A DNA stretch of 64,000 bases from Promethearchaeota archaeon (GTDB taxonomy: Archaea; Asgardarchaeota; Lokiarchaeia; Sigyniarchaeales; SOKP01). Shown piece after piece: positions 42,427 to 57,710 of the stretch. The translations under genes were made by a program, and so were the position numbers. Under the pieces are notes generated by a model. It had not been told where the DNA came from, searched no databases, and worked only from the letters and a program-made list of their open reading frames with translations. The stretch lies in contig JAHPZA010000006.1 of assembly GCA_019058445.1 (NCBI GenBank), positions 480,001-544,000 on the forward strand. Reading direction: 5' to 3'. How positions within the stretch are numbered: the stretch's first letter is position 1; each line of letters opens with the position of its first letter.

Positions 42427-44367
42427 TTAGCCGAATTGCCTGTAATCTATTGTTTTAATGATATATTTTTCCCCAGTTGCACCATTATTCACTAAAGCAA
42501 ATCGATTTTCTAATTGGGTGATTAATTGTCGTTCCTCGGGGTCTTCAGTAAACAAACTATTATTGGGGTAATCCTCCCGGAAAATAATCTTTACGCTGGG
42601 TTGCGAGGGAACATCTTCAAATAATTGAGAAGGTGATTGGTCTGCAATTATAAACCCAACACCTCTGCTACGATACTCTTTTAACATTTTAGAGAATATC
42701 TTAGCCATTTGCTCTTTCATGATAAAATCGGTATCATCTGGATTTGATGTAATAGGCTTTTCTAAAATCTCATGGGCCTCGTCAATAACAACAACTTGAT
42801 TCAATTTCTCAATTTCGCGGTCTTTTGTCAGCACTCGAATCAATTGAAGAATAGCATTAACGATTAATAATTTAACAAATTTATTACACATACTTAAATC
42901 TAAAAAGATATTCTGTCCATTTATCCAATTCTTAATCCAGGTTGGTAATTCGGAAGTAATACTAAGAGTTTGTTGGATCTTTTTATCATTAAACACATTA
43001 ATTCGATTTTTTAACGCCTGTAAAAAATTGCCCTGCAGATCTTTACCATAGGGATTTTTTCTTATATAGCTCTCAACGCTTTTTAAAATCGTAAGGAAAT
43101 ATGAGGGCATTTTGCCTTGAGTAGTCATAATTGCTTTAGCAGAACTATAGAAAATTTTTTCAAACACATTTTTTAGTCCTAATGAGGCACATAAATAAGT
43201 TGCCAGTTCTTGTAAGTGCTTATCTAATTGCGCACTTTCCCCTTTCACAAAATATGGGATGTTAAAATCTTTATCAGAGAAGCTAATGTGAAGAAAATTA
43301 TTATAATAAATGTTTTGAGATTCTTTTGCAACATTGAGCACTAAAACTCCAATACTATCCGCCTTTTGATTCAATTCTTCAATTAATTGAGCGAGTAGAT
43401 ACGTTTTTCCCGTTCCAGATTTTCCAAAAATTACCATATTTTGAGTTAGTTTGTTAATAGGAACGTAAGTAATATGGTCAGAAACAATCCCATTTTTTAC
43501 ATGAAATCCTATGCTTAAGGAGTTTTTTTTAAAATCTTCATTTATATCAGCATATCGCACAATTTCATCTTTTAATATGGGTAATTTAAGTAAGGGAGTA
43601 TTTTCTGGAAAGTCAAAATCAATTTTAGTTCTATCTAGCCATTTATAATTCTCATGTTCATTTTTAAAAACTGTACCTCTTAAAATATCCGAATAGTCTA
43701 TATCTGAAGGTGTTAATAAATTTGCCCGAATTCTATTCTGATTTTCAATAGCAGTGCATAAGTATTGCAATAATCCTTTTAAGTTCACTACATCATTTTC
43801 ATTTAGGTTCCTTGCTTTATATCTAATGAAAAATCTGAAGGAGAATTTAGGATGCCCAGTGTAAAGATAATCTGATCGTTCAGTTAATTTCTGCCAAATT
43901 GCATAAAGTCGTACTTCATTTCTTCTAGGGAAAAAAAAAGAAGAAATAAACCTCTCAACAATATCAATCTTATATGATAAAATTCCATCTGGAATGATGA
44001 TTTCTTCAATTTCATAATCCTCGTTTTCCTGTAGTGTCTCCATAGTAATTAAATTTGCATGCACCTTGCCGTCTAATCCTATGAATTCATATTTTAGGTT
44101 ATTTAACCAAGTATGACCGAAAACCAGCGCTTCAGTTTTAGAAGATGCCTCTGTAAAAAATTCCCATTTAATATTTTCAGAAGCAATTAATTCAAGTCCA
44201 TAGCTTTTAAATGGAATTGATCCAATTGGATCTAATAAAAATGACCGTACCTTAAGTTCCCCCTCATTATCGAAACCTGGGATATCTTCAGCTTCTTTTG
44301 GTTCAAATGGTTGAGGAACTTGCGTAATTTCAATGCGAGCTTGCCAAAATAAAGTGTCACTTTCCAT
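42427..44367 (-). CDS. HerA/FtsK/VirB4-like ATPase (DUF87-type)
   Basis: NMVIFGKSGTGKT (Walker A), VVIDEAH (Walker B), EYRSRGVGFIIADQSPS (Arg finger/sensor). Confidence 0.88.
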   Translation of the reverse strand: MESDTLFWQARIEITQVPQPFEPKEAEDIPGFDNEGELKVRSFLLDPIGSIPFKSYGLELIASENIKWEFFTEASSKTEALVFGHTWLNNLKYEFIGLDGKVHANLITMETLQENEDYEIEEIIIPDGILSYKIDIVERFISSFFFPRRNEVRLYAIWQKLTERSDYLYTGHPKFSFRFFIRYKARNLNENDVVNLKGLLQYLCTAIENQNRIRANLLTPSDIDYSDILRGTVFKNEHENYKWLDRTKIDFDFPENTPLLKLPILKDEIVRYADINEDFKKNSLSIGFHVKNGIVSDHITYVPINKLTQNMVIFGKSGTGKTYLLAQLIEELNQKADSIGVLVLNVAKESQNIYYNNFLHISFSDKDFNIPYFVKGESAQLDKHLQELATYLCASLGLKNVFEKIFYSSAKAIMTTQGKMPSYFLTILKSVESYIRKNPYGKDLQGNFLQALKNRINVFNDKKIQQTLSITSELPTWIKNWINGQNIFLDLSMCNKFVKLLIVNAILQLIRVLTKDREIEKLNQVVVIDEAHEILEKPITSNPDDTDFIMKEQMAKIFSKMLKEYRSRGVGFIIADQSPSQLFEDVPSQPSVKIIFREDYPNNSLFTEDPEERQLITQLENRFALVNNGATGEKYIIKTIDYRQFG

Positions 44368-44885: not shown

Positions 44886-46679
44886 ATGGATGATGAAATT
44901 AAAATAATTGAAGTAAGAATTCGTAATTATCGTTGTCTTAAATCAGTAGCTTTAAAACTTGAAGATTTAACAATATTAACTGGTCAAAATAATTCGGGTA
45001 AAACTAGTTTTATTAAAGCCATTGAATCAGCTATTGGAGTTGGGAGTCAAAGATTTACAGAGGAAGATATTTATTTAGCTCAAAATGAAAAAAGACCACC
45101 AAAAGATCGAGCAATTATTGTCGACTTGCTGATACGCCCTTGGAATAGTACAGAAAATAAAGTAATAGATGTCTTTCCTCAAGGGAGTTTTTGGTTAGCT
45201 CTTTGGGGAGATGGAACAGCTCAAGATAAAAATTTTAATGATTTCATTGGAATGAGAACTGAATATAAATGGAATCCTAGAAAAAATGATTATTCTACTA
45301 CTCGAAGTTTTTTAAATGAGTGGAAAGAGGACCTTGAAGAAATTGAGAAAGCAAAAAAAATTGAAAAAGCAGGTGCAATAAATTTTGAAATGATTGAACC
45401 TCTAGCACTTTATTTAATGGATGAAAAAAGAGATATCATAGATGAGTTTAGTAAAAAAACATCTTTTTGGTATAAATTGATTTCAAATCCTGGTTTAAAT
45501 GAAGATCAGATAAAAGATTTCGAAAAAGCATTAAATAATCTTAATCTAAATATAATCAAGGGAAGTTCAGTTTTAAAACATATTTTAGACCATTTAAATG
45601 AATTATATCCAATTGTATCTCATGAATTTGGTAAACCCGAAATATTTCCAATTCCTAGACAATTAGATGATTTGAGTAAAGGAATTGATATCGGAATTTC
45701 AATGAAAAATTCCCAAACATTCTCCCTAACTCGATATGGAATGGGGACTCGAAGTTTGGCAACTATAGTATTATTTAAGGCATATATTACCTTAAAACAA
45801 AAAGAGATGAAGAATAATAAAATGCATCCAATGCTCGCTATTGAAGAACCTGAAAATCATCTGCATCCTCAAGCTCAGAGATCAATATTTGAATTAATTA
45901 AAAAAATTCAAGGTCAAATAATACTTACAACACATTCACCATATATTATTGAATGTGCTAGAATTCAGCAGATTCGTCATTTCCAAAAGATAGACTCAGA
46001 TGTCCAGATTTCTCAAATGAATGTGGAAGATCTCTCAGAAGATGATCTAAGAAAAATAAATTATATGGTGTTAAAAACCAGAGGCTATATGTTTTACGCT
46101 CGAGTATTGATTCTTGCAGAGGGAGAAACCGATGAGAGAGGATTACCTACATTTGCTGAGGAATATTGGGGTAAACGCCTGAGTAATTTAGGTATGGAGT
46201 TTATTGGAGTAGGTGGTGATGGTAATTATCTCCCATTTTTAAGGCTTGCTCAAAGTTTTGGTATTCGATGGTATATTTTTTCTGATGGAGAACCTGAAGC
46301 AATTAATAATGTTAATAGGGCACTTACTAAATTGAATGAAGATATTATTCCCAATAATCCTAATGTATTTGTTTTGCCTAATAATGAAAACTATGAATCC
46401 TATTTAATAAAGTCTGATTATGAAAAGGAGCTTATAGAGATGTATATCAATTTAAAAGGAGAGCAAGCAGAACATAAGAACGCTTTAAAAGATGATTTTG
46501 ACAATAATAGAAAAACATTAGATGATATTCTTCAATATGCTAAGGATAATAAAATTAAGTGTGCAATACCATTAGCTAAAGCAATTTTACATAATACTGA
46601 TGAGAATCTAAGATTTCCTGAAAAAATTCGGTTGCTTTTCGAAAAAATAAGTATTGATTTTAAATTAAAAAAAAAATAA
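44886..46679 (+). CDS. gajA: OLD-family ABC-ATPase/TOPRIM nuclease (GajA-like)
   Basis: IRNYR, GQNNSGKT, GMG signature, IEEPENHLHPQAQR, TTHSP, TOPRIM LAEGETD and FSDGE. Confidence 0.88.
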   Translation: MDDEIKIIEVRIRNYRCLKSVALKLEDLTILTGQNNSGKTSFIKAIESAIGVGSQRFTEEDIYLAQNEKRPPKDRAIIVDLLIRPWNSTENKVIDVFPQGSFWLALWGDGTAQDKNFNDFIGMRTEYKWNPRKNDYSTTRSFLNEWKEDLEEIEKAKKIEKAGAINFEMIEPLALYLMDEKRDIIDEFSKKTSFWYKLISNPGLNEDQIKDFEKALNNLNLNIIKGSSVLKHILDHLNELYPIVSHEFGKPEIFPIPRQLDDLSKGIDIGISMKNSQTFSLTRYGMGTRSLATIVLFKAYITLKQKEMKNNKMHPMLAIEEPENHLHPQAQRSIFELIKKIQGQIILTTHSPYIIECARIQQIRHFQKIDSDVQISQMNVEDLSEDDLRKINYMVLKTRGYMFYARVLILAEGETDERGLPTFAEEYWGKRLSNLGMEFIGVGGDGNYLPFLRLAQSFGIRWYIFSDGEPEAINNVNRALTKLNEDIIPNNPNVFVLPNNENYESYLIKSDYEKELIEMYINLKGEQAEHKNALKDDFDNNRKTLDDILQYAKDNKIKCAIPLAKAILHNTDENLRFPEKIRLLFEKISIDFKLKKK

Positions 46680-46691
46680 TATTATAAATTT

Positions 46692-48548
46692 ATGACAATT
46701 AAACCCACATTAATTCAAAAAAAAATAATTCAACATGGGGATGGAGCTTTATTAGTCCTTGCAGGACCAGGTTCAGGTAAAACTTTTGTTGTTACAGAAC
46801 GTATACGCCGTTTATTAATGGAATCTAAGGGAAATTTTCGAATACTAGCTTTAACTTTTACAAATAAAGCGGCTAATGAAATGAAAGAACGATTAGCTGA
46901 ATTTCCAAGAATAAATAAGAAAGCATTTATTGGTACGCTCCATAGTTTTTGCTTAGAAGTTCTTGCAAATAGAGGTAATTCAGAAGGATTCAATGGTCTT
47001 CCCATCATTTTTGAATTAATTGAAGATCGTAGAAAGATTTTATCTCAGGCAATTAGAGAAGTTCCAATTTTAGATAACGAATTCAAGCAATTAGAAACCT
47101 CAAAACAAAAACTCAATTTCCTTGATCACTGGCTCGAAGAGATTAGAATTGCTAAAATTAAACTAAAAACACCAGAATTGATAGATGAGTTAACACTAAG
47201 AAATATTTTTGAATCTTATAATGCTTATCTCCGGATTTCAAATGCTGTAGATTTCGATGATTTACTCCTATATACGTACCAAATATTTGAAAAACAGCCA
47301 AAAATTGCAGACTTCTATCGTCGACAGTATCGTTATATTTGTATAGATGAAGCCCAGGATTTAAATGAAGCTCAATATCGAGTAATTACTGCATTATGTG
47401 GTAATTCGTACAAAAATGTTATGATGGTCGGAGATCCAAATCAAGCCATTTTCGAGTGGTATGGTGCGAGTCCAAAATATTTAGAACAATTTAAAGAAGA
47501 TTTTGATGCTAAAGTGATTAATATTGAAGAAAACTTTCGAAGTTCGAGATCAGTCATAGTTGCTGCAAATAAATTAAATCCGAAATATGAAACAGTTGGG
47601 GTTTACCCTATTGAGGGTGAGATAAAATTAATTATAGGTAAAAGTGAAAATCATGAAGCACAGCTTATCTTAAAAGAAATTTCAGAATTATTGGAAAAAG
47701 GTCATAAAGACATAGAAAATCTAGTAGCTCTAAATGATATTGCCATTTTAGGTCGTACTCGCTATGCTCTTTTAGAAATCCAAAATGTATTGGAAAAAGC
47801 TGGTTTAAAATACTATATTTATTTATCTTCTCAACATCAATCAGAATCAAACATTATGAAAGATTTTGAATTATGTTTGAGATTATTAGTAAATCCAATA
47901 GATCAATTGCATGGAGAGATCCTTCTCAAAAGATGGAATCTTGATTCAGACCTTTTTAACAAGAGTTTGAAGTATAAATTAAATTTCTTTAAAATATTAA
48001 ACCAAGAAGTAACTAATCAAAAACATAAAATAGTTATACATGCAATAAAAGAATTAGAATGGACGGAAGAGAATGTTCTTTTCTTAAATGCAATTAAAAT
48101 TTTTGAGGATTTTGCACCTAAATTAACCATTAATGATCGGGAACTATTAATCAATGATATTAATTTATGGAAACAACATTGGGATACTTTTTTAAGAGCA
48201 GATCATGGAGGAGCGCATAAGTTAAGCACATTTTTAAGCCAGATAGCACTGGGATGCACGCAACCAGCATGTCAAGATGGAATTGCTTTATTAACAATTC
48301 ATTCTGCGAAAGGATTGGAATTTAATGTTGTTTTTATTGTAGGGTTGGCAGAAGGTATATTTCCAGATTATCGAGTTAAAACTCGAGTAGATCATGAAGA
48401 AGAATTACGAAATGCATTTGTAGCTATTACTCGTGCAAAACGTTTACTATTTCTCTCGTTTCCTCAAAGAAAAAAAATGCCTTGGGGTGAAATTAGACCT
48501 CAAACTCCATCTAGATATTTAAAAAAGATCGGTTTTAATAAATTCTAA
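46692..48548 (+). CDS. gajB: UvrD-like helicase (GajB-like)
   Basis: AGPGSGKT, LTFTNKAA, IDEAQD, VGDPNQAIF, ENFRS, TIHSAKGLEF, FVAITRAK; 12 bp downstream of the OLD gene. Confidence 0.88.
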   Translation: MTIKPTLIQKKIIQHGDGALLVLAGPGSGKTFVVTERIRRLLMESKGNFRILALTFTNKAANEMKERLAEFPRINKKAFIGTLHSFCLEVLANRGNSEGFNGLPIIFELIEDRRKILSQAIREVPILDNEFKQLETSKQKLNFLDHWLEEIRIAKIKLKTPELIDELTLRNIFESYNAYLRISNAVDFDDLLLYTYQIFEKQPKIADFYRRQYRYICIDEAQDLNEAQYRVITALCGNSYKNVMMVGDPNQAIFEWYGASPKYLEQFKEDFDAKVINIEENFRSSRSVIVAANKLNPKYETVGVYPIEGEIKLIIGKSENHEAQLILKEISELLEKGHKDIENLVALNDIAILGRTRYALLEIQNVLEKAGLKYYIYLSSQHQSESNIMKDFELCLRLLVNPIDQLHGEILLKRWNLDSDLFNKSLKYKLNFFKILNQEVTNQKHKIVIHAIKELEWTEENVLFLNAIKIFEDFAPKLTINDRELLINDINLWKQHWDTFLRADHGGAHKLSTFLSQIALGCTQPACQDGIALLTIHSAKGLEFNVVFIVGLAEGIFPDYRVKTRVDHEEELRNAFVAITRAKRLLFLSFPQRKKMPWGEIRPQTPSRYLKKIGFNKF

Positions 48549-49225: not shown

Positions 49226-51313
49226 TTAATTTAATGTTTCATAAAGGTTATCATCTAGCTCTTCTAAATACATAGATGCCTCGAGCAAATCATTCCTTCC
49301 ACTGAATCTCGATCTTGATAAAAACAGATTTGTCTTAGCTCTAGTCAATGCTACATAGAATACTCGTCTTTCCTCTTCTAAATCCTCATCTATAGTTAGA
49401 TTTTGGTAGCTTGGAAAAAAACCATTCTCTAACATGGGAAGAAATACATTTTCCCATTCTAATCCTTTAGCTCTATGAATTGTTGAGATAATTAGTTTAT
49501 CTCTATCATTTCCTTTTTTTTCACTATGATATTCACTTTCATTCAAACTTAAATCATTGAGAAACTTACCAATTATTTTGAAATCATTTCCGATTTCAAT
49601 TAATAAATCTATATCATTCAATCTCTCCTGAAAGCTCTCATCATTCTCATTTCTCTTATATTTTTCCTCAAATATATTATAAAATAAAGGAGATTTGATA
49701 AATGAGTTAATTATCATTCCTACACTTCCTGTGAAAGAATAAAATGTTTTCATAATCACGATAATTTTATCGATAGTTTTATCACCTAAACGAGATATTT
49801 TACCTTTCTGCTTAAGTTTAATGATTCTTGCTTTTAGTTCCCTTTTATTGATTAAAAGAGACACTGGATTTTTCGATTTATATATAAGTTCTTCATAGAT
49901 CTTTATTGCATTTGTTTCTCCTAATCCGTAAATATATTTTGTTGCGATTCGTTTCCAGTATCCTTCCGCAAAGACGTCTTTTGGATTATATCTAAACGCT
50001 AGAAAAGCCAATAAATCACGTATATGAGCTTTCTCAAATAAAGAACGCCCTCCTCTTACTTCGAAAGGAATCTTATTTTCTGTTAATTTTATCATTAATT
50101 TATTAATATAATATATTTCCTCTCTGTTACCTCGTAGCGATCTAAATAATAAAGCGATTTCCCCATAAGGTTTTCCCTCTTGATGTAATTTTATAATATT
50201 TTCAAGAAGCCAATTTATTTGTTCTTGAAAGGTTTCTGCTTCAAATAACAAGGGCTTCATTCCAGATTCTCTATTAGAACGCATGTCCTTTTCATATCGA
50301 AAATAATTATTTTTAATAGAGTCATTTGCTAAATAGAGGATTTCAGGTATACTTCGATAATTCGTAGTTATATTATATTGTGTACACCCATAAAAGTTCG
50401 TTTGGAAGTTTAGAAAGTTCTTGATATTAGCTCCTCTAAAAGCATATATGGATTGAGCATCATCTCCAACAACCATTAAGCAAGATTTTTCATTCAGTTT
50501 AGCTAGTTTTGTAATTATCTCATTCTGAATAAAGTTAGTATCTTGATATTCATCAACTAAAATATATTTATATCTTTTGGCAAACTTCTTAACACTCTCA
50601 AAATCTAATAATCTACTCCAAAGTATAAGCAAATCATCAAAATCTATTTTTGAAAATTTTTTTTTTATATCTTTATATCTTTTATTAATTTCCCTAATTT
50701 GAGAAAGAAATCCTTTAAACTCTTGAAAACGCCAATCTATTGTTTCAGCAAGATCTCTATTACAATTAGCAGAACTACTAAGGACCTCTTTTATGTTTTT
50801 AGCTTTAGGAAATTTCTTCTTAATCTCTTGTAATAGATCATCTTCTTTATCTGGATGAATCACTAAATATTGTGGATTAGATATTAATTCATCTCTACAT
50901 GCATCATCAATACATTTATTAATTAAATCCCTTGCTTTACTCTCATCTAAAATATCATATCTTCCATATTTTAACATACCCTTGAAACGTTTCAGAAAAA
51001 CTGTATGAGCAATACTATGGAATGTTCCTGCTGTAATGGAAGGCATAAATCCCAATAATTTTTTCACACGTCCTAACATCTCCTCTGAGGCTTTATTTGT
51101 AAAGGTAACAAGCATTATCTGTTTAGGTGATACATCCATTTCAATTAACTTAGCTACACTATAAGTAATTGTCCTTGTTTTACCAGAACCTGCACCTGCT
51201 AAAATAAGCATTTTACCCCTTAGATTATTTACAATCTTTAATTGTTCCTTATTTAGTTTATTTTCATAATGTATCTGTTTTGGCTTCATTTTTAGCGATC
51301 TTGTCAATTCCAC
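49226..51313 (-). CDS. UvrD/PcrA SF1 helicase
   Basis: AGAGSGKT, VDEYQD, VGDDAQSIYAFRGA, NYRS, TIHRAKGLEW, YVALTRAK. Confidence 0.93.
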   Translation of the reverse strand: MELTRSLKMKPKQIHYENKLNKEQLKIVNNLRGKMLILAGAGSGKTRTITYSVAKLIEMDVSPKQIMLVTFTNKASEEMLGRVKKLLGFMPSITAGTFHSIAHTVFLKRFKGMLKYGRYDILDESKARDLINKCIDDACRDELISNPQYLVIHPDKEDDLLQEIKKKFPKAKNIKEVLSSSANCNRDLAETIDWRFQEFKGFLSQIREINKRYKDIKKKFSKIDFDDLLILWSRLLDFESVKKFAKRYKYILVDEYQDTNFIQNEIITKLAKLNEKSCLMVVGDDAQSIYAFRGANIKNFLNFQTNFYGCTQYNITTNYRSIPEILYLANDSIKNNYFRYEKDMRSNRESGMKPLLFEAETFQEQINWLLENIIKLHQEGKPYGEIALLFRSLRGNREEIYYINKLMIKLTENKIPFEVRGGRSLFEKAHIRDLLAFLAFRYNPKDVFAEGYWKRIATKYIYGLGETNAIKIYEELIYKSKNPVSLLINKRELKARIIKLKQKGKISRLGDKTIDKIIVIMKTFYSFTGSVGMIINSFIKSPLFYNIFEEKYKRNENDESFQERLNDIDLLIEIGNDFKIIGKFLNDLSLNESEYHSEKKGNDRDKLIISTIHRAKGLEWENVFLPMLENGFFPSYQNLTIDEDLEEERRVFYVALTRAKTNLFLSRSRFSGRNDLLEASMYLEELDDNLYETLN

Positions 51314-51863: not shown

Positions 51864-53174
51864 ATGACTAATTGTGAAGAATTGAAAAACATAGTAAATA
51901 ATCCAGATGAAGAAAATTTAAAAATAGAATTTAAAAATTCACACATATTGAAAACAAACAAGGGTAAGAAGAAAATTGCAAAAGAGATTGTCTCATTTGC
52001 AAATAAATACGGGGGGAAATTAATTTTAGGTATTAATAAAGATAGATCGTTTGAAGGAAAGAATATATTTAATGTTGATATTGATAAAGGGAAAATTGTT
52101 GGGATTATTAGAGATAGAATTAGTCCTAATTTAAATTGTGAGATTGAATTTTTACCTTGTATTGAAGGTGATGTAATAGTCATAAATACACCAAAAAGAA
52201 AAGATATGCCTAATGCTGTTGTTAAAAAAAGTGATGGAAAAATAATAAATAGAGGATATTATACTAGAACTTCTCATGGGATAAGAGATGTTTCAGATAA
52301 AGAATTACAATATTTATTTAAAGAAGAAAAAATCAATTTTTCATACCCCTTTAAAATTGTTATTAATTACATAAAAGATTCTTTAAGAATTCCTCCATTA
52401 GGTCTTGAAAGCCCTTCATGTATTAAACAATATTATTTACCTCTAATAGAAAAAATACCAAATGAGATTCTCGAAAGTATTAAGAGTGAATTCGATGATA
52501 AATTTCGATTTTTTATGGAAATCACCCCTTATATTTTACTTATGTCATTCACTTTTTATTTTAAATATTCCTGGTTAATAGAGGTTAAAAGACATAATGG
52601 TCAAAGAAGTAGTAGAGCAATTTCTACAAATGTGCCAAAGAAAAGAATTCAAATTAATGAATTACCAACTCTCCCTAATGATTCAATATTATCTAAATTC
52701 TCAATTGATATTAGGGAAATTTTAGATGAGGTGAGTTTCCGGGAATTTTTTATCCCTATTAATATGGATTTAAATATTTTTAAAAAAAAGACAGTTGGTT
52801 ATGAAATAATAATGGAACATGAAGATTTTAAATTTATTATCTCTTTTAATTTTGATATGTGGGGATTAGGTCTTGATCAATTACATCCACGAAGAGCTAC
52901 TTATTTAAATCAATATTTATATGAAGGAAAAGAAAATATTAATGATCAATTTGAACATATTCAATTTGATTGTAAATTTAATACGGAATTTAAATTTCCA
53001 GAAAATAATCCCGAATTATTTGATAATTTTTATCACTATGCGAAAACAATTAAAGATATTCTTCTAAATGAATGGGATTATCAAAAATATATAAAAAAAT
53101 TACCTCATCATTTACTCTATTCGATTGATTTAAAATTAAAGGATATCTCAAATTATTTACAAAATAAAAAGTAA
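51864..53174 (+). CDS. Schlafen AlbA_2 domain protein with unknown C-terminal domain
   Basis: EENLKIEFK, IAKEIVSFANKYGGKLILGI, YYTR motifs. Confidence 0.85.
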   Translation: MTNCEELKNIVNNPDEENLKIEFKNSHILKTNKGKKKIAKEIVSFANKYGGKLILGINKDRSFEGKNIFNVDIDKGKIVGIIRDRISPNLNCEIEFLPCIEGDVIVINTPKRKDMPNAVVKKSDGKIINRGYYTRTSHGIRDVSDKELQYLFKEEKINFSYPFKIVINYIKDSLRIPPLGLESPSCIKQYYLPLIEKIPNEILESIKSEFDDKFRFFMEITPYILLMSFTFYFKYSWLIEVKRHNGQRSSRAISTNVPKKRIQINELPTLPNDSILSKFSIDIREILDEVSFREFFIPINMDLNIFKKKTVGYEIIMEHEDFKFIISFNFDMWGLGLDQLHPRRATYLNQYLYEGKENINDQFEHIQFDCKFNTEFKFPENNPELFDNFYHYAKTIKDILLNEWDYQKYIKKLPHHLLYSIDLKLKDISNYLQNKK

Positions 53175-53502: not shown

Positions 53503-55137
53503 GGGTAGTTACAAAATTTCGTGATGGGTTTTAAATCTTTGGTGACATTTTATCCTTCTTGGATTGCGAAGTATTCGTGCCAAAGTTGTTGGTAATTTCC
53601 ATACCATTTCTCAAGCTTATTAAATTCCGCTTGAAAATAGCGATGCTGAGCACTCATGGTACGTTTATCTGGAAGTTCGGACAGAATAATTTTAAACTCA
53701 TCATATTTCGTCTTTAAATAGCTAATATGTTCGGGAAATCGACCAAAATTATGTTTAAATACACGATAATCAAGAATTCGCTGTGCGCCTTGAGGAGTCA
53801 TCATGCCTCGCTTAAACGATGGGTAGTAGGTATACTTCTTATGATATGCCTCTAAAAGGTTATTAGTTGTAGGGATAAGCGGATTCCGCTGATAGGCTAT
53901 AATTTTTGGAAACCATGATTCTAAGTTTTTTAACGCTGTTTGTAAGTGCTTAATCTTTTTACCCTTTAATTTTTCTACTGTATGGCGCACGATTTCTAAT
54001 TGTATGTAAGCATCTGCCTCATGCCTCGAATCAATCAAGTTATAGAAGCGTTTTAAAAGCCATCTCCACTTCTTTGGAATTGGTTTTACTGACTGAGTAG
54101 ATAAACCTGCATAAGCCTTCACATGTTTGGATATCATCCATTTCACATGGGTTAAACAATTTTGTTGGATGATATGTTTGAAACTATGTGATTTAAATAG
54201 CCTTCCTAAATTAGTCGTACAATCTTTTACAATTCCATTTATCCAAAGTACGTTATGGCAGCGCGCCTCTTTAAACAAATGATATCCGGCGCTCCTGCCC
54301 ATGGAATCAGATATTTTTGCGGCTGGTACAAACCTCGTTACCACATCCACGGTGTCTAAGGTGTACATCTTCTCACCTCCAATTCGCATGTGAATCTCAT
54401 CATACCCCCAATATCCGCTTGATGGGACTGGAGTTTCTTTTAATATTTTTCTAAGCGGTTTAGTGACCTCCTCTATCCAATAGACAATGGTAGATCTAGG
54501 AATTTCTAAATTAAAATCTACCTTGAATATTTGTTGGATTTGTGAAGGCATCAGGCCATTCATATAATGTTGCCGAGCCCGACGTTTATGATTTTCATGG
54601 TATTTGCCATATTTTGGGGCAATTTCAGAATAATCAGGGTGTACTTCGCCACACCGCTTACATCGCTTTCTATGAATGCGAAATTCATGCTTCCCGAGAT
54701 CTTTATCTAAGATTGCTATTCGCGGATATTGCCCGTTTTTTCTCAATCTCCTCCCACATTCAAGACAGTGCGTTTCTTTTATATAAACGTCTCCTTCTGC
54801 CATCATTTTTATTTTGTAATCGCTTCTAATGGAATTGGTAGCTCTTTTCTTTTCGTCGGATATTAACCCGTTGATTTTTTGATCAAAAATTTCTGGAAAA
54901 AATTTATTAAGTGTGGTTTGTTCTATCTTTATGGGAGTATTTCTTTTACTTGATTTTGGTATGGGCATATTAAAATTAAGTAAAGGACTCCTAATAAATC
55001 TCTCCTTTTAATATTATGATTTAACGATGGAAATCACACCCCATAACCTCTGTTTCTATTGGAAAGGATAGATCATAAAAATTTGGATATAAATTATCAT
55101 CAAGTATTCTTAAAATCACAGAGTTTTGTAACCAACC
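53503..55137 (-). mobile_element. Insertion sequence, IS256/Mutator-like DDE group, 1635 bp
   Basis: TIRs GGGTAGTTACAAAATTTCGTGAT and (revcomp) GGTTGGTTACAAAACTCTGTGAT (18/23 identical); 8-bp TSD CGAAATTT at 53495-53502 and 55138-55145. Confidence 0.9.
53550..54968 (-). CDS. DDE transposase
   Basis: CLEC/CKRC Zn finger, HTH, GYDE, VKDC, C-x2-H (NCLTHV), TTNNLLE. Confidence 0.9.
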   Translation of the reverse strand: MPIPKSSKRNTPIKIEQTTLNKFFPEIFDQKINGLISDEKKRATNSIRSDYKIKMMAEGDVYIKETHCLECGRRLRKNGQYPRIAILDKDLGKHEFRIHRKRCKRCGEVHPDYSEIAPKYGKYHENHKRRARQHYMNGLMPSQIQQIFKVDFNLEIPRSTIVYWIEEVTKPLRKILKETPVPSSGYWGYDEIHMRIGGEKMYTLDTVDVVTRFVPAAKISDSMGRSAGYHLFKEARCHNVLWINGIVKDCTTNLGRLFKSHSFKHIIQQNCLTHVKWMISKHVKAYAGLSTQSVKPIPKKWRWLLKRFYNLIDSRHEADAYIQLEIVRHTVEKLKGKKIKHLQTALKNLESWFPKIIAYQRNPLIPTTNNLLEAYHKKYTYYPSFKRGMMTPQGAQRILDYRVFKHNFGRFPEHISYLKTKYDEFKIILSELPDKRTMSAQHRYFQAEFNKLEKWYGNYQQLWHEYFAIQEG

Positions 55138-55287
55138 CGAAATTTTTCTTTAAATGGATTTGGTTTAAATAATATAGAAAATTTTTGGAGTATGATTGTT
55201 ATTAATAGGCGATAATTTTATATTATTTAAAATTCAATTTAACAATGAAGCAAAATTCAAAATTATGAGTTAAAGGAGGAATAAAAA

Positions 55288-55998
55288 TTGGCTCTTTCGC
55301 GAGATGAGATTTTAGAATATATCAATACAAATCAGATTATTACGCGAAATTTCGAAGAAAAATGTTTAGAACCTGCAAGTTATGACATTCGATTGGGTAC
55401 TGAGGGGATTACATCCAGCAATAAAAAGATAGTCAATATAGAAGAGTTAGGATATTTGGCAATTGAACCTGGAGAATTCGCAGTTTTCACGAGCTTGGAA
55501 TTTTTTGAAATGCCGAATGATATCGTTGGAAATATAGGGATGAAATCCAAGTATGCCCGGAAAGGATTAATATTACTAGTAGGATTACAGATTGATCCAG
55601 GATTTAAAGGATATCTCACGCTTCGAATGTTCAATACAAGTACCCAAAAAATCGTATTATCATACAGGGATAAAATTGGGATGGTTCAATTTATTAAACT
55701 AAATGTACCTGCAAAAAAACCTTATAGTGGTCCTTATCAAGAACAATTGACAATACCACCCGAAGATATTTCCCATATAATAGAAGCAGAGGGAATGACA
55801 ATGGGGAATGTTATAAAATCCTTACAAGGTCTTATTACGTCTATAAATGATTTAAAAAACTCCCAGGAAAATCTAAGAAAAGATTGGGAGAAACATGAAG
55901 CTCGAATGGAACGGCATGAAAAGAGAATAGAGTGGATATTTGGGATCATTCTCGGCGTTCTCACGGTAATATTCACTATATTTACATTTATTCAATAG
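55288..55998 (+). CDS. dCTP deaminase/dUTPase-fold protein with C-terminal coiled coil and TM anchor
   Basis: PASYDIRLG, KSKYARKGL, IDPGFKG, YSGPYQ; catalytic Glu position reads Arg (LTLRMFN); ends WIFGIILGVLTVIFTIFTFIQ; SD AAGGAGGA upstream of TTG. Confidence 0.85.
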   Translation: MALSRDEILEYINTNQIITRNFEEKCLEPASYDIRLGTEGITSSNKKIVNIEELGYLAIEPGEFAVFTSLEFFEMPNDIVGNIGMKSKYARKGLILLVGLQIDPGFKGYLTLRMFNTSTQKIVLSYRDKIGMVQFIKLNVPAKKPYSGPYQEQLTIPPEDISHIIEAEGMTMGNVIKSLQGLITSINDLKNSQENLRKDWEKHEARMERHEKRIEWIFGIILGVLTVIFTIFTFIQ

Positions 55999-56217
55999 GA
56001 TAAAGTTTGCAAAGGTGTAATTTTGTGCTTATAGACTTGAAATTAGATCGATTTAGTAAATTTGGATTAAAATTCTCCAAAAATTTATATAAAAAACTTT
56101 TTTTTACATTATCATCAAAAGATGCCTCATTATTTATTGAATGAAATTCTTGAAAAATTTTAAATTGAAAGCCTAGTGTCAAGTTCATTTCTACCCCGAT
56201 GGTGATTTATCTTAGTT

Positions 56218-57069
56218 ATGACTTACGTAGAAAAATTACAAGAACGATCAAAAATATTAATACAAATAACTGGAGTAATGGTTGCATTTTTTATTGCAGC
56301 ATATCTAAACTTTTTAGATTATAGATTTAAGCACGAATACTCATTTAATATCTTACTCATAGGATTATCAGCAATAGTTTTAAGCTTCCTTTTCTCAATT
56401 ATGGGGGCAATTTTCAGCACAAGCGGTCTACTCTGTAAAAATAAGAGCGAAGGGGGCAATAAGGATGATATGAAGATGGCATTAAATGTTACATTTATCT
56501 ACATTCCTCTTTTAAATCTTGTGATTGCTATGGCATGTATTGCACACGCTTTTTTATTAGAAGTGGACTTTCCATTGTGGACTTTTTTATATATAATAAT
56601 TCTAATTGGAGCTAGCTGTAGTGTGAGTCTCTCCTTTATATATAAATTTTACTTATCGAACTTATCCATAACGAGTAAGAATTATGGAAACACTATTTTT
56701 TTAATTTTTTTTATTATATTCTTAGTGTTATTTTATATAACAGAGGTGTTCATCTCCAAATATACCGTAATTAATGCTATATTCCTTCCAACGATGTGGT
56801 TATTTAGTATAATTTGGGGAGCTAGCTTAGTAGCTATTATACTAATCTCCATAATTTACCGAAACAAAATGAGAAAAAAAATAAAAGATATGCCATCCAA
56901 GGACAAAAAAGAGGAATTTGATACTGAAATTGATAATTTAAACAAAATAAAAACCCATTGGATTATTTTGGAGGTTATTTGCATAAGTGTTTATGTCGTA
57001 TGTTTATTGATATTTAGTTATTGTATTTTAAGCTCTTACTGCATTTTAGCTTTATTTAATGCTGTATGA
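56218..57069 (+). CDS. Multi-pass membrane protein (about 7 TM)
   Basis: Hydrophobicity pattern; N-terminus resembles 58803..59339. Confidence 0.7.
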   Translation: MTYVEKLQERSKILIQITGVMVAFFIAAYLNFLDYRFKHEYSFNILLIGLSAIVLSFLFSIMGAIFSTSGLLCKNKSEGGNKDDMKMALNVTFIYIPLLNLVIAMACIAHAFLLEVDFPLWTFLYIIILIGASCSVSLSFIYKFYLSNLSITSKNYGNTIFLIFFIIFLVLFYITEVFISKYTVINAIFLPTMWLFSIIWGASLVAIILISIIYRNKMRKKIKDMPSKDKKEEFDTEIDNLNKIKTHWIILEVICISVYVVCLLIFSYCILSSYCILALFNAV

Positions 57070-57371
57070 TTATTTTGATATTATAATTTCTAAATTTTCA
57101 ATGTTAGATCATTCCATCTTCAATTAAAAAGTCGATCCAGATCATCAAGTCAGTTTGAATTTGATTTTTTCGTTCCAGGAAGAACATAATTTTTTGCTCA
57201 TGCAGTTCAATTTCGTCTTTGCTCGCGTTAAACAAGGTGAGTTGAACTTTTTCTTCTATCAATAATTCTAATGAAATATTAATCCGTTTGATCTGCTTTA
57301 GGATATTTTTAAATTTTAAATAGATTTCTCATTTTTTTTTAACTCATTTTCATTTGAATTGAGCTTATTTT

Positions 57372-57710
57372 TTAATTTATTAATTGTTTTTCGATTAACT
57401 TTTTAGCTTTTTCGGTTAAATGAAGTTTGGGAAACCATGGGTTATTGTAATCAAGGCTTGGAGCTAAAATTCCCGATGTTATATATTCCCATATCTTATC
57501 CGAAACTTTAAGATAATCTTCATTAGATAAAACGAGCTCCCGTGATTTTACATTCATATAATCCATATTAGTAGCTATACTCTGAATTTTTTTATATAAT
57601 TCATTTGTAATTCCTACGTAAAAGATCATATTCCTTTTAATTAGCTCTTTAACAATATTTTCAACTTTTTGATCATCAAAACTTTCATATTCAGTTGATA
57701 TTTTAATCAC
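57372..57710 (-). CDS. Small winged-helix-like hypothetical protein
   Basis: KIWEYITSGILAP...PKLHLTEKAK pattern. Confidence 0.55.
   Translation of the reverse strand: MIKISTEYESFDDQKVENIVKELIKRNMIFYVGITNELYKKIQSIATNMDYMNVKSRELVLSNEDYLKVSDKIWEYITSGILAPSLDYNNPWFPKLHLTEKAKKLIEKQLIN

Follow-up and report, generated by a model that had tools for sequence, protein, structure and literature searches.

The closest described relatives of the gene reported here are soluble enzymes of the Dcd/dUTPase fold, in which a C-terminal lid orders over the bound nucleotide. The dCTP deaminases (Dcd) and Dcd:dut enzymes (Escherichia coli 1XS1, Mycobacterium tuberculosis 2QXX/4A6A, and Methanocaldococcus jannaschii 1OGH) are housekeeping proteins of ~190 amino acids (aa), and the catalytic Glu of dCTP deaminase (E138 in E. 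coli and E129 in M. tuberculosis) activates the deaminating water. The archaeal Dcd-type dUTPases (8Y1W and the Pyrococcus protein P45, 9LN0/9LN3) are vertically inherited housekeeping proteins of ~155 aa that have lost this Glu, and classical Dut (PF00692, which includes the phage Duts) is a trimeric beta-barrel of the same superfamily that carries the motif-3 Asp. We analyzed a 64,000-nucleotide stretch of DNA from a Promethearchaeota archaeon (GenBank assembly GCA_019058445.1, contig JAHPZA010000006.1, positions 480,001 to 544,000), here called the window, in which one open reading frame (ORF), P0001, encodes a head of this fold, then a coiled-coil stalk, and finally a transmembrane (TM) helix at the C-terminus. 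This tail-anchored architecture defines a large, deep family whose members come from a wide range of bacterial phyla and from some archaea, and it is the stalk-and-anchor tail, not the loss of the Glu, that is the new feature. We favor, at about even odds (a probability of roughly 0.5), the reading that P0001 is a membrane-tethered trimeric pyrophosphatase of pyrimidine deoxynucleoside triphosphates (dNTPs) that acts alone and probably serves against viruses or mobile elements. The coordinates of all features, counted from the first nucleotide of the window, are collected in Table 1.

The head domain and its membrane tail

P0001 matched Pfam DCD (PF22769; residues 3 to 137, E 5.2e-23), its sole Pfam match, and scored 112.1 bits against NCBIfam TIGR02274 'dCTP deaminase' over residues 3 to 156, above the cut-off of 92.8 bits, which is why annotation pipelines give it that name. 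These matches bore out an earlier note on this DNA, made from the sequence alone, that had described a Dcd fold with the motifs KSKYAR (residues 86 to 91) and IDPGF (residues 102 to 106). The best solved relatives were the Thermococcales Dcd-type dUTPases 8Y1W (Thermococcus pacificus, with dUMP) and 9LN0/9LN3 ('thermostable dUTPase P45'). Sequence matches to 8Y1W and 9LN0 had E values of 1.8e-27 and 1.6e-26, compared to ~1e-13 for true Dcd enzymes, and a Foldseek comparison with the same two structures gave a TM-score (TMt) of 0.89 to 0.92, a root-mean-square deviation of 1.6 to 1.9 Å, and 34% identity. The AlphaFold2 (AF2) model of the protein, built from a 31-sequence alignment and having a mean predicted local distance difference test (pLDDT) score of 88, consists of a barrel (residues 1 to 150), a short helix (residues 158 to 166), and a single unbroken helix (residues 172 to 235), and the C-terminus of the head is the conserved lid motif KPYSGPYQ. 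The ORF begins with TTG, and since its N-terminus lines up with the ATG-started 'MALS...' of relatives, this start is sound.

In a HMMER alignment, R113 stood opposite the catalytic Glu of M. tuberculosis Dcd:dut ('LTLRMFN' on 'ITLELSN'), which upheld the earlier note's reading of an Arg codon in place of the deaminase Glu. A sequencing error at this codon, which the note had discounted as requiring two base changes, was ruled out, since the entire family is without the Glu. Among 119 close relatives the column held G 94 times, R 22 times, and A 3 times; among 149 more broadly sampled representatives G was seen in 60, S in 26, T in 20, P in 13, A in 11, N in 7, and R in 4, and E only once, both in the 149 and in the 98 of these that carry a tail. 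The archaeal dUTPases 8Y1W and 9LN0 have Met at this position, so the loss of the Glu is the normal state of the Dcd-type dUTPase branch and is by itself no sign of a sensor; the missing Glu argues against deamination, not against catalysis. S87 was kept in 117 of the 119 close relatives and 113 of the 149 representatives, R91 in 118 and 107, respectively, and the D103 column was D in 118 and 144. Residues A30, Y32, D33, R35, S87, R91, Q101, D103, P104, G105, G108, N116, Y146, G148, and Q151 were invariant or nearly so; in established Dcd/dUTPase structures, residues at these positions bind the sugar and phosphates of the nucleotide (deoxyribose, triphosphate) and serve in closure of the C-terminal lid.

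Beyond the head, the lid motif continues straight into a linker, then into an unbroken stalk, and then into the TM helix. The linker pattern IPPEDI..I.E.EGM...V was kept in both archaeal and bacterial members, with G169 nearly invariant, and from residue 172 into the TM helix the a and d heptad positions were hydrophobic in one register with no break. Hydropathy gave one TM helix only, at residues 217 to 235 (value, 2.7), and the coiled coil and C-terminal TM helix described in the earlier note were recovered in the AF2 helix, the heptad register, and the hydropathy profile alike. A strongly basic stretch, RMERHEKRIEW, lies ahead of the TM helix, which by the positive-inside rule suggests that the head is on the cytoplasmic side of the membrane. 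The tail was poor in sequence conservation beyond its hydrophobicity, and when residues 150 to 236 were used as a tail-only query, the closest relatives alone came back, none of them combining this tail with a different head domain.

The extent of the family was assessed in several collections. When 5.8 billion proteins were searched through a word index, 292 relatives were found; among the 119 listed (the window's own protein excluded), every one had a hydrophobic C-terminal tail and nearly all were 214 to 259 aa long, with three fragments of ~140 to 155 aa. When HMMER was run exhaustively over 1.84 billion cluster representatives, 38 matched at E <= 1e-30 and a total of 1184 at E <= 1e-10, and a tail TM helix was present in 98 of the 149 best representatives, the remainder being fragments, tandem-head two-TM forms (~450 aa), or proteins with other C-termini. 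The architecture is conserved: more than 200 relatives of 214 to 240 aa have the tail, and the tail TM helix was also found at ~75 of 80 genome loci. The ESM Atlas returned DCD clusters only. The family comprises at least ~100 clusters at 50% identity, and in a one-genome-per-species set 172 stretches encoded a relative, their hosts being Acidobacteriota, Chloroflexota, Alpha- and Gammaproteobacteria, Actinomycetota, Verrucomicrobiota, Clostridia, Planctomycetota, Nitrosotalea, and others. In a FastTree tree of 144 representatives, which is not rigorous and for which the tail columns were kept in the alignment, tailed forms occurred throughout and tail-less rows were interspersed among them, many of the latter being fragments.

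Variant forms were also seen. Three proteins of ~450 aa (P0160, P0210, and P0212) carry a tandem double Glu-less Dcd-like head followed by two TM helices, and P0147 is a soluble Glu-less Dcd-like form with a weak C-terminal match to DUF5678 (22.4 bits versus a cut-off of 23.2). In two Clostridia metagenome-assembled genomes (L005 and L006, which have the same sequence), the Dcd-like frame is cut to 97 aa and may be a frameshifted or decayed copy.

Distribution, neighborhoods, and the local island

P0001 was shown to be a stand-alone, horizontally acquired accessory gene, not a housekeeping one. The host is an archaeon, as shown by its three TBP genes (among the controls, TBP was found only in archaea); its assembly contains no SSU rRNA. 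Of the other 153 genomes in its order, none had the tail-anchored gene. The only other superfamily member in the host genome was a classical Dut, encoded on contig 9, whose RG..GFGSTG end is complete; 25 of 31 relatives, including all nine congeners, have this Dut. Five complete bacterial carrier genomes were inspected, and all five had a canonical Dut and most a canonical Dcd. In the family around a Nitrincola carrier, none of 150 sampled genomes had the gene, and in a Thermoanaerobaculia family full-length matches were found in 2 of 56 other genomes. The contig 9 Dut is a 187-aa ORF (L002:1303-1866) whose N-terminal ~20 to 35 residues are unaligned; because relatives match only from residue 19 to 35, its true start may be further downstream.

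Clustering of the neighboring genes across the 80 genome loci identified no conserved neighbor, and the only recurrent neighbors were transposases of the IS1595 and IS1 types and a small basic protein. Pfam matches among the 148 directly flanking genes included IS1595 (4), IS1 (3), Peptidase_S24 (4), GmrSD (2), Fic (2), and P63C (2), and PADLOC matches among them included PDC-S04, NsnA, SoFic, AbiEi, PDC-S05, and others. In a control set of 148 genes lying 7 to 10 kb away, no transposase family was among those listed, so it is the flanking genes specifically that are associated with insertion sequence (IS) elements.

Among 2.9 million IMG/VR contigs, five carried the gene. On one prophage-like viral contig it lay between the genes for an integrase and the central tail fiber J, which is the usual accessory ('moron') slot, and on other viral contigs terminase, anti-repressor, and endonuclease genes were nearby. 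PHROG 1663 'dCTP deaminase', a generic family, matched residues 3 to 189 of P0001. A PHROG 'endonuclease' match (E 1e-131) fell on one gene of the viral-contig set, and the gene directly upstream of the Dcd-like gene on one viral contig (L087:6786-7871) begins with a motif resembling the N-terminal domain of type I restriction enzyme R subunits. The contexts of the closest relatives were five short metagenome contigs. On L092, an archaeal contig with a TFIIB gene, three ORFs of 338 to 376 aa without a Pfam match flank the relative that is 58% identical; L092:2582-4729 (- strand) and L092:5915-7042 (+ strand) are possible unknown island genes.

In the window itself, the DNA from 44 to 59.6 kb had no counterpart in nine congeners and the distal genes had one, so this segment is a strain-specific island. 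A Gabija pair lies 6.7 kb upstream of P0001 inside the same island, and together with HerA-like, UvrD-like, Schlafen-like, and transposase genes (Table 1) it substantiated the defense-rich surroundings described in the earlier note. No partner was identified for the HerA-like ATPase, and the helicase is a second UvrD-type gene beside Gabija, with no adjacent GajA or reverse transcriptase seen. A search for direct repeats of the attachment-site type bounding the island found nothing convincing, and ARAGORN found no tRNA within the window. A segment of ~300 bp downstream of the 7-TM ORF (57104-57402) has a 75% identical copy on another contig of the same genome (G000:C10:475003-475302) and could be a short repeat or the end of a paralogous gene.

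Table 1. Features of the window, with positions counted from its first nucleotide
Feature	Position	Strand	Basis or remark
Tail-anchored dUTPase-like ORF (P0001)	55288-55998	+	236 aa
GGAGG Shine-Dalgarno-like site	55275-55279	+	8 nt 5' of TTG start; sequence reading
Dcd/dUTPase-fold head, residues 1-152	55288-55743	+	Pfam DCD, TIGR02274, 8Y1W/9LN0, AF2 pLDDT 88-97
SKYAR codons, S87 to R91	55546-55560	+	Triphosphate-binding residues in Dcd/dUTPases
D103 codon (motif-3 Asp of IDPGF)	55594-55596	+	Column conservation among relatives
R113 codon CGA, deaminase Glu position	55624-55626	+	Alignment to M. tuberculosis Dcd:dut and archaeal dUTPases
Family-specific linker, residues 153-171 (IPPEDI..IIEAEGM)	55744-55800	+	Lid-to-stalk joint; helix 158-166 in model
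Coiled-coil stalk, residues 172-212, ~six heptads	55801-55923	+	AF2 long helix; a/d register
C-terminal TM anchor, ~residues 213-235, then one residue and stop	55924-55998	+	Hydropathy, relatives' tails
T8 run, possible archaeal terminator	56098-56105	+	100 nt past stop codon of P0001
7-TM ORFan, 283 aa	56218-57069	+	Seven hydropathy peaks
HerA/DUF87-like ATPase	42427-44367	-	PADLOC mad8 and HerA matches; island side of Gabija
Gabija gajA-gajB	44886-48548	+	PADLOC GajA E 4.7e-184, GajB E 4.2e-221
UvrD-type helicase	49226-51313	-	PADLOC RTasHel E 5e-77, GajB models
Schlafen/AlbA_2 protein	51864-53174		Upstream of P0001
Transposase-like gene directly upstream	53550-54968	-	Weak DDE_Tnp_IS66, IS6, IS66 matches

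Proposed function and its alternatives

In the favored reading, the head of P0001 would be trimeric, as in every solved member of the fold, and the three stalks would pack in parallel as a coiled coil along the three-fold axis, leading into a three-helix membrane anchor. An active pyrophosphatase is the most likely activity because P0001 retains the Ser/Arg phosphate clamp together with the motif-3 Asp and a Tyr-Gly-x-x-Gln lid. Deamination of dCTP would not be possible for a protein without the Glu, and the putative reaction is the conversion of dUTP to dUMP and pyrophosphate on the inner side of the membrane, possibly extending to dCTP or to phage-modified pyrimidine dNTPs. The selective value of such a reaction would lie in conflict with viruses or mobile elements, for instance through removal of a nucleotide that an invader needs, and this role seems the most likely one because of the redundancy with Dut, the sporadic distribution, and the company of IS elements, a prophage, and a defense island. 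Since the lid runs directly into the stalk in the model, a coupling of membrane state with catalysis, or of nucleotide binding with the membrane, is structurally plausible, and the activity of the putative enzyme may respond to the state of the membrane.

Several points weigh against this reading. It offers no reason for anchoring a dUTPase in the membrane, the variable Glu column gives no clue to the substrate, and activity, trimer, and phenotype are predictions for every member of the family. PADLOC is without a model for the protein, and PADLOC-DB v2 gave 0 families for P0001 at E <= 0.01. Many of the loci are flanked by housekeeping genes (tRNA synthetases, RecA, and purD). In addition, the control genes 7 to 10 kb away gave about as many PADLOC matches as the flanking genes, mostly to restriction-modification, in a comparison that counts families and not per-gene matches, so that an enrichment of defense genes was not demonstrated at the level of the family. 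An accessory and not a housekeeping context, as the earlier note's reading requires, was supported, with no copy in the 153 other genomes and a co-resident Dut.

The alternative that survives best, which we regard as possible but doubtful, is that there is no conflict role and that P0001 is a membrane-bound dUTP-sanitizing enzyme that assists the carriers' own DNA replication or DNA uptake at the membrane. Many phages carry soluble Duts, and an enzyme of this type would be consistent with plain dUTPases being the nearest structures, with the match of PHROG 1663 over residues 3 to 189, and with the presence of the gene on five viral contigs, as well as with the frequent housekeeping neighbors and the similar near and far PADLOC counts. 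However, a canonical Dut made the gene redundant in every genome tested, its occurrence in viruses was rare (5 loci in 2.9 million contigs), the prophage-like copy occupied the accessory slot between integrase and tail fiber and was not among replication genes, and the copy described here is in an island with Gabija. If P0001 were merely a membrane-localized dUTPase, it would be a modest curiosity.

A bolder form of the conflict role, which we put forward tentatively and consider rather unlikely, is that of a single-gene immune module of bacteria and Asgard archaea in which the trimeric head would read or destroy a pyrimidine dNTP (dUTP, dCTP, or a phage-modified analogue) and the lid-linked stalk would couple this chemistry to the membrane. 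Within this proposal, and with the same reserve, the enzyme might be switched on by membrane perturbation at infection, or nucleotide binding might open a membrane lesion. Were this module real, it would constitute a new class of nucleotide-pool defense that uses a fold hitherto known from housekeeping metabolism alone.

An abortive-infection effector gated by a nucleotide is less probable again. Such a head would bind a nucleotide altered by infection (dUTP, dCTP, or a phage-modified dNTP), and, in a second step that we likewise consider improbable, closure of the lid would twist the coiled coil so that the TM helices oligomerize into a pore and depolarize the cell. The run of the lid into a conserved linker, an unbroken heptad stalk, and a TM helix would suit this mechanism, as would a patchily distributed single-gene unit in an island, and single-TM effector tails are common among known defense systems. 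Against it, the Asp and the phosphate-binding set were kept as strictly as in enzymes and a pure sensor could lose them; one TM helix per chain, or three per trimer, would make a minimal pore; and the tail was poorly conserved in sequence beyond hydrophobicity and, in the tail-only search, was found on no other head domain. That the catalytic Asp and the phosphate clamp are so strictly kept favors an enzyme over a pure sensor. The earlier note had left the choice between a membrane-tethered dUTPase and a nucleotide-binding sensor, and the tethered dUTPase fits better, given that the nearest structures are dUTPases and the catalytic residues are near-invariant.

We assign very little weight to a moonlighting regulator, that is, a membrane-held dUTPase-like trimer acting through protein-protein contact. 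Dut signaling has a precedent, since staphylococcal phage Duts act on the repressors of staphylococcal pathogenicity islands, and Peptidase_S24 or helix-turn-helix repressor-type genes flank the gene at 4 of ~75 loci; nevertheless, no conserved partner was found, and the conservation of the active site points to nucleotide chemistry. Finally, the earlier note had described a ~7-TM gene downstream, which is present and has seven hydropathy peaks, and had offered, as one of two options, a nucleotide sensor coupled to a membrane effector. A two-gene membrane system in which the Dcd-like protein signals to this 7-TM protein was rejected at the level of the family as highly improbable: although the two genes are on the same strand 219 bp apart, neither occurs in any of the other 153 genomes of the order, and the second has a weak PycTM match (E 0.004), the spacer contains a T8 run that may be a terminator, as archaeal RNA polymerase terminates at oligo-T, the PycTM match is no better than hydrophobic bias would produce, the 7-TM protein had no relative but itself in 5.8 billion proteins, its gene was absent from all 92 related loci fetched, the relatives of 86 to 88% and 58% identity have different neighbors and no 7-TM gene, and no neighbor was conserved in the 80 loci.

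Comparison with known systems

The closest described proteins, the archaeal Dcd-type dUTPases, share with P0001 the loss of the Glu and the motifs SxxAR, DPG(F/W)xG, and PY.G.YQ. Compared to these soluble, vertically inherited enzymes, P0001 has an extra 85 aa of linker, coiled coil, and TM helix, is accessory, and coexists with a classical Dut. The Dcd and Dcd:dut enzymes have the fold and the phosphate-binding residues in common with P0001, but they are soluble and housekeeping, whereas P0001 is tail-anchored and has no counterpart in the 153 other genomes of its order, and it is less similar to them (53 bits) than to the dUTPases (100 bits). Where Dcd enzymes have the catalytic Glu, P0001 has Arg and its relatives have G, S, T, or A, and deamination is not expected; the label 'dCTP deaminase' is almost certainly wrong for this family, as the catalytic Glu is missing. 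Classical Dut belongs to the same superfamily, but P0001 scored only 16.9 bits against TIGR00576 (cut-off, 102.55), had no PF00692 match, and lacks the glycine-rich motif V. A literature search found no description of a tail-anchored Dcd/dUTPase or of a Dcd-fold defense gene, and in the literature searched, Dcd-type dUTPases that carry a conserved stalk for membrane anchoring are an undescribed family. It would offer a simple model for the coupling of an active-site lid to a membrane via a coiled coil.

Among proven defense genes, the nearest comparison is with enzymes that act on the dNTP pool. The defensive dCTP deaminase consists of a zinc-dependent cytidine deaminase and an N-terminal kinase-like domain, and the defensive dGTPase is an HD enzyme (Tal et al., bioRxiv 10.1101/2021.04.26.441389), in agreement with the earlier note, which had placed the described antiviral dCTP deaminases in the zinc-dependent family. 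P0001 has neither a zinc-deaminase nor a kinase domain, DCD being its sole Pfam match, and no PADLOC match. A functional analogy is possible, in that each may be a single defense-island gene that acts on the dNTP pool, but the folds of the defensive dCTP deaminase and dGTPase are unrelated to that of P0001, they have no membrane anchor, and their role in defense is proven, that of the present family being putative. If P0001 and its relatives are active dNTP pyrophosphatases engaged in conflict with viruses or mobile elements, bacteria and Asgard archaea may both possess a third route to immunity through the nucleotide pool, structurally unrelated to the two known ones, the zinc-dependent dCTP deaminases and the dGTPases.

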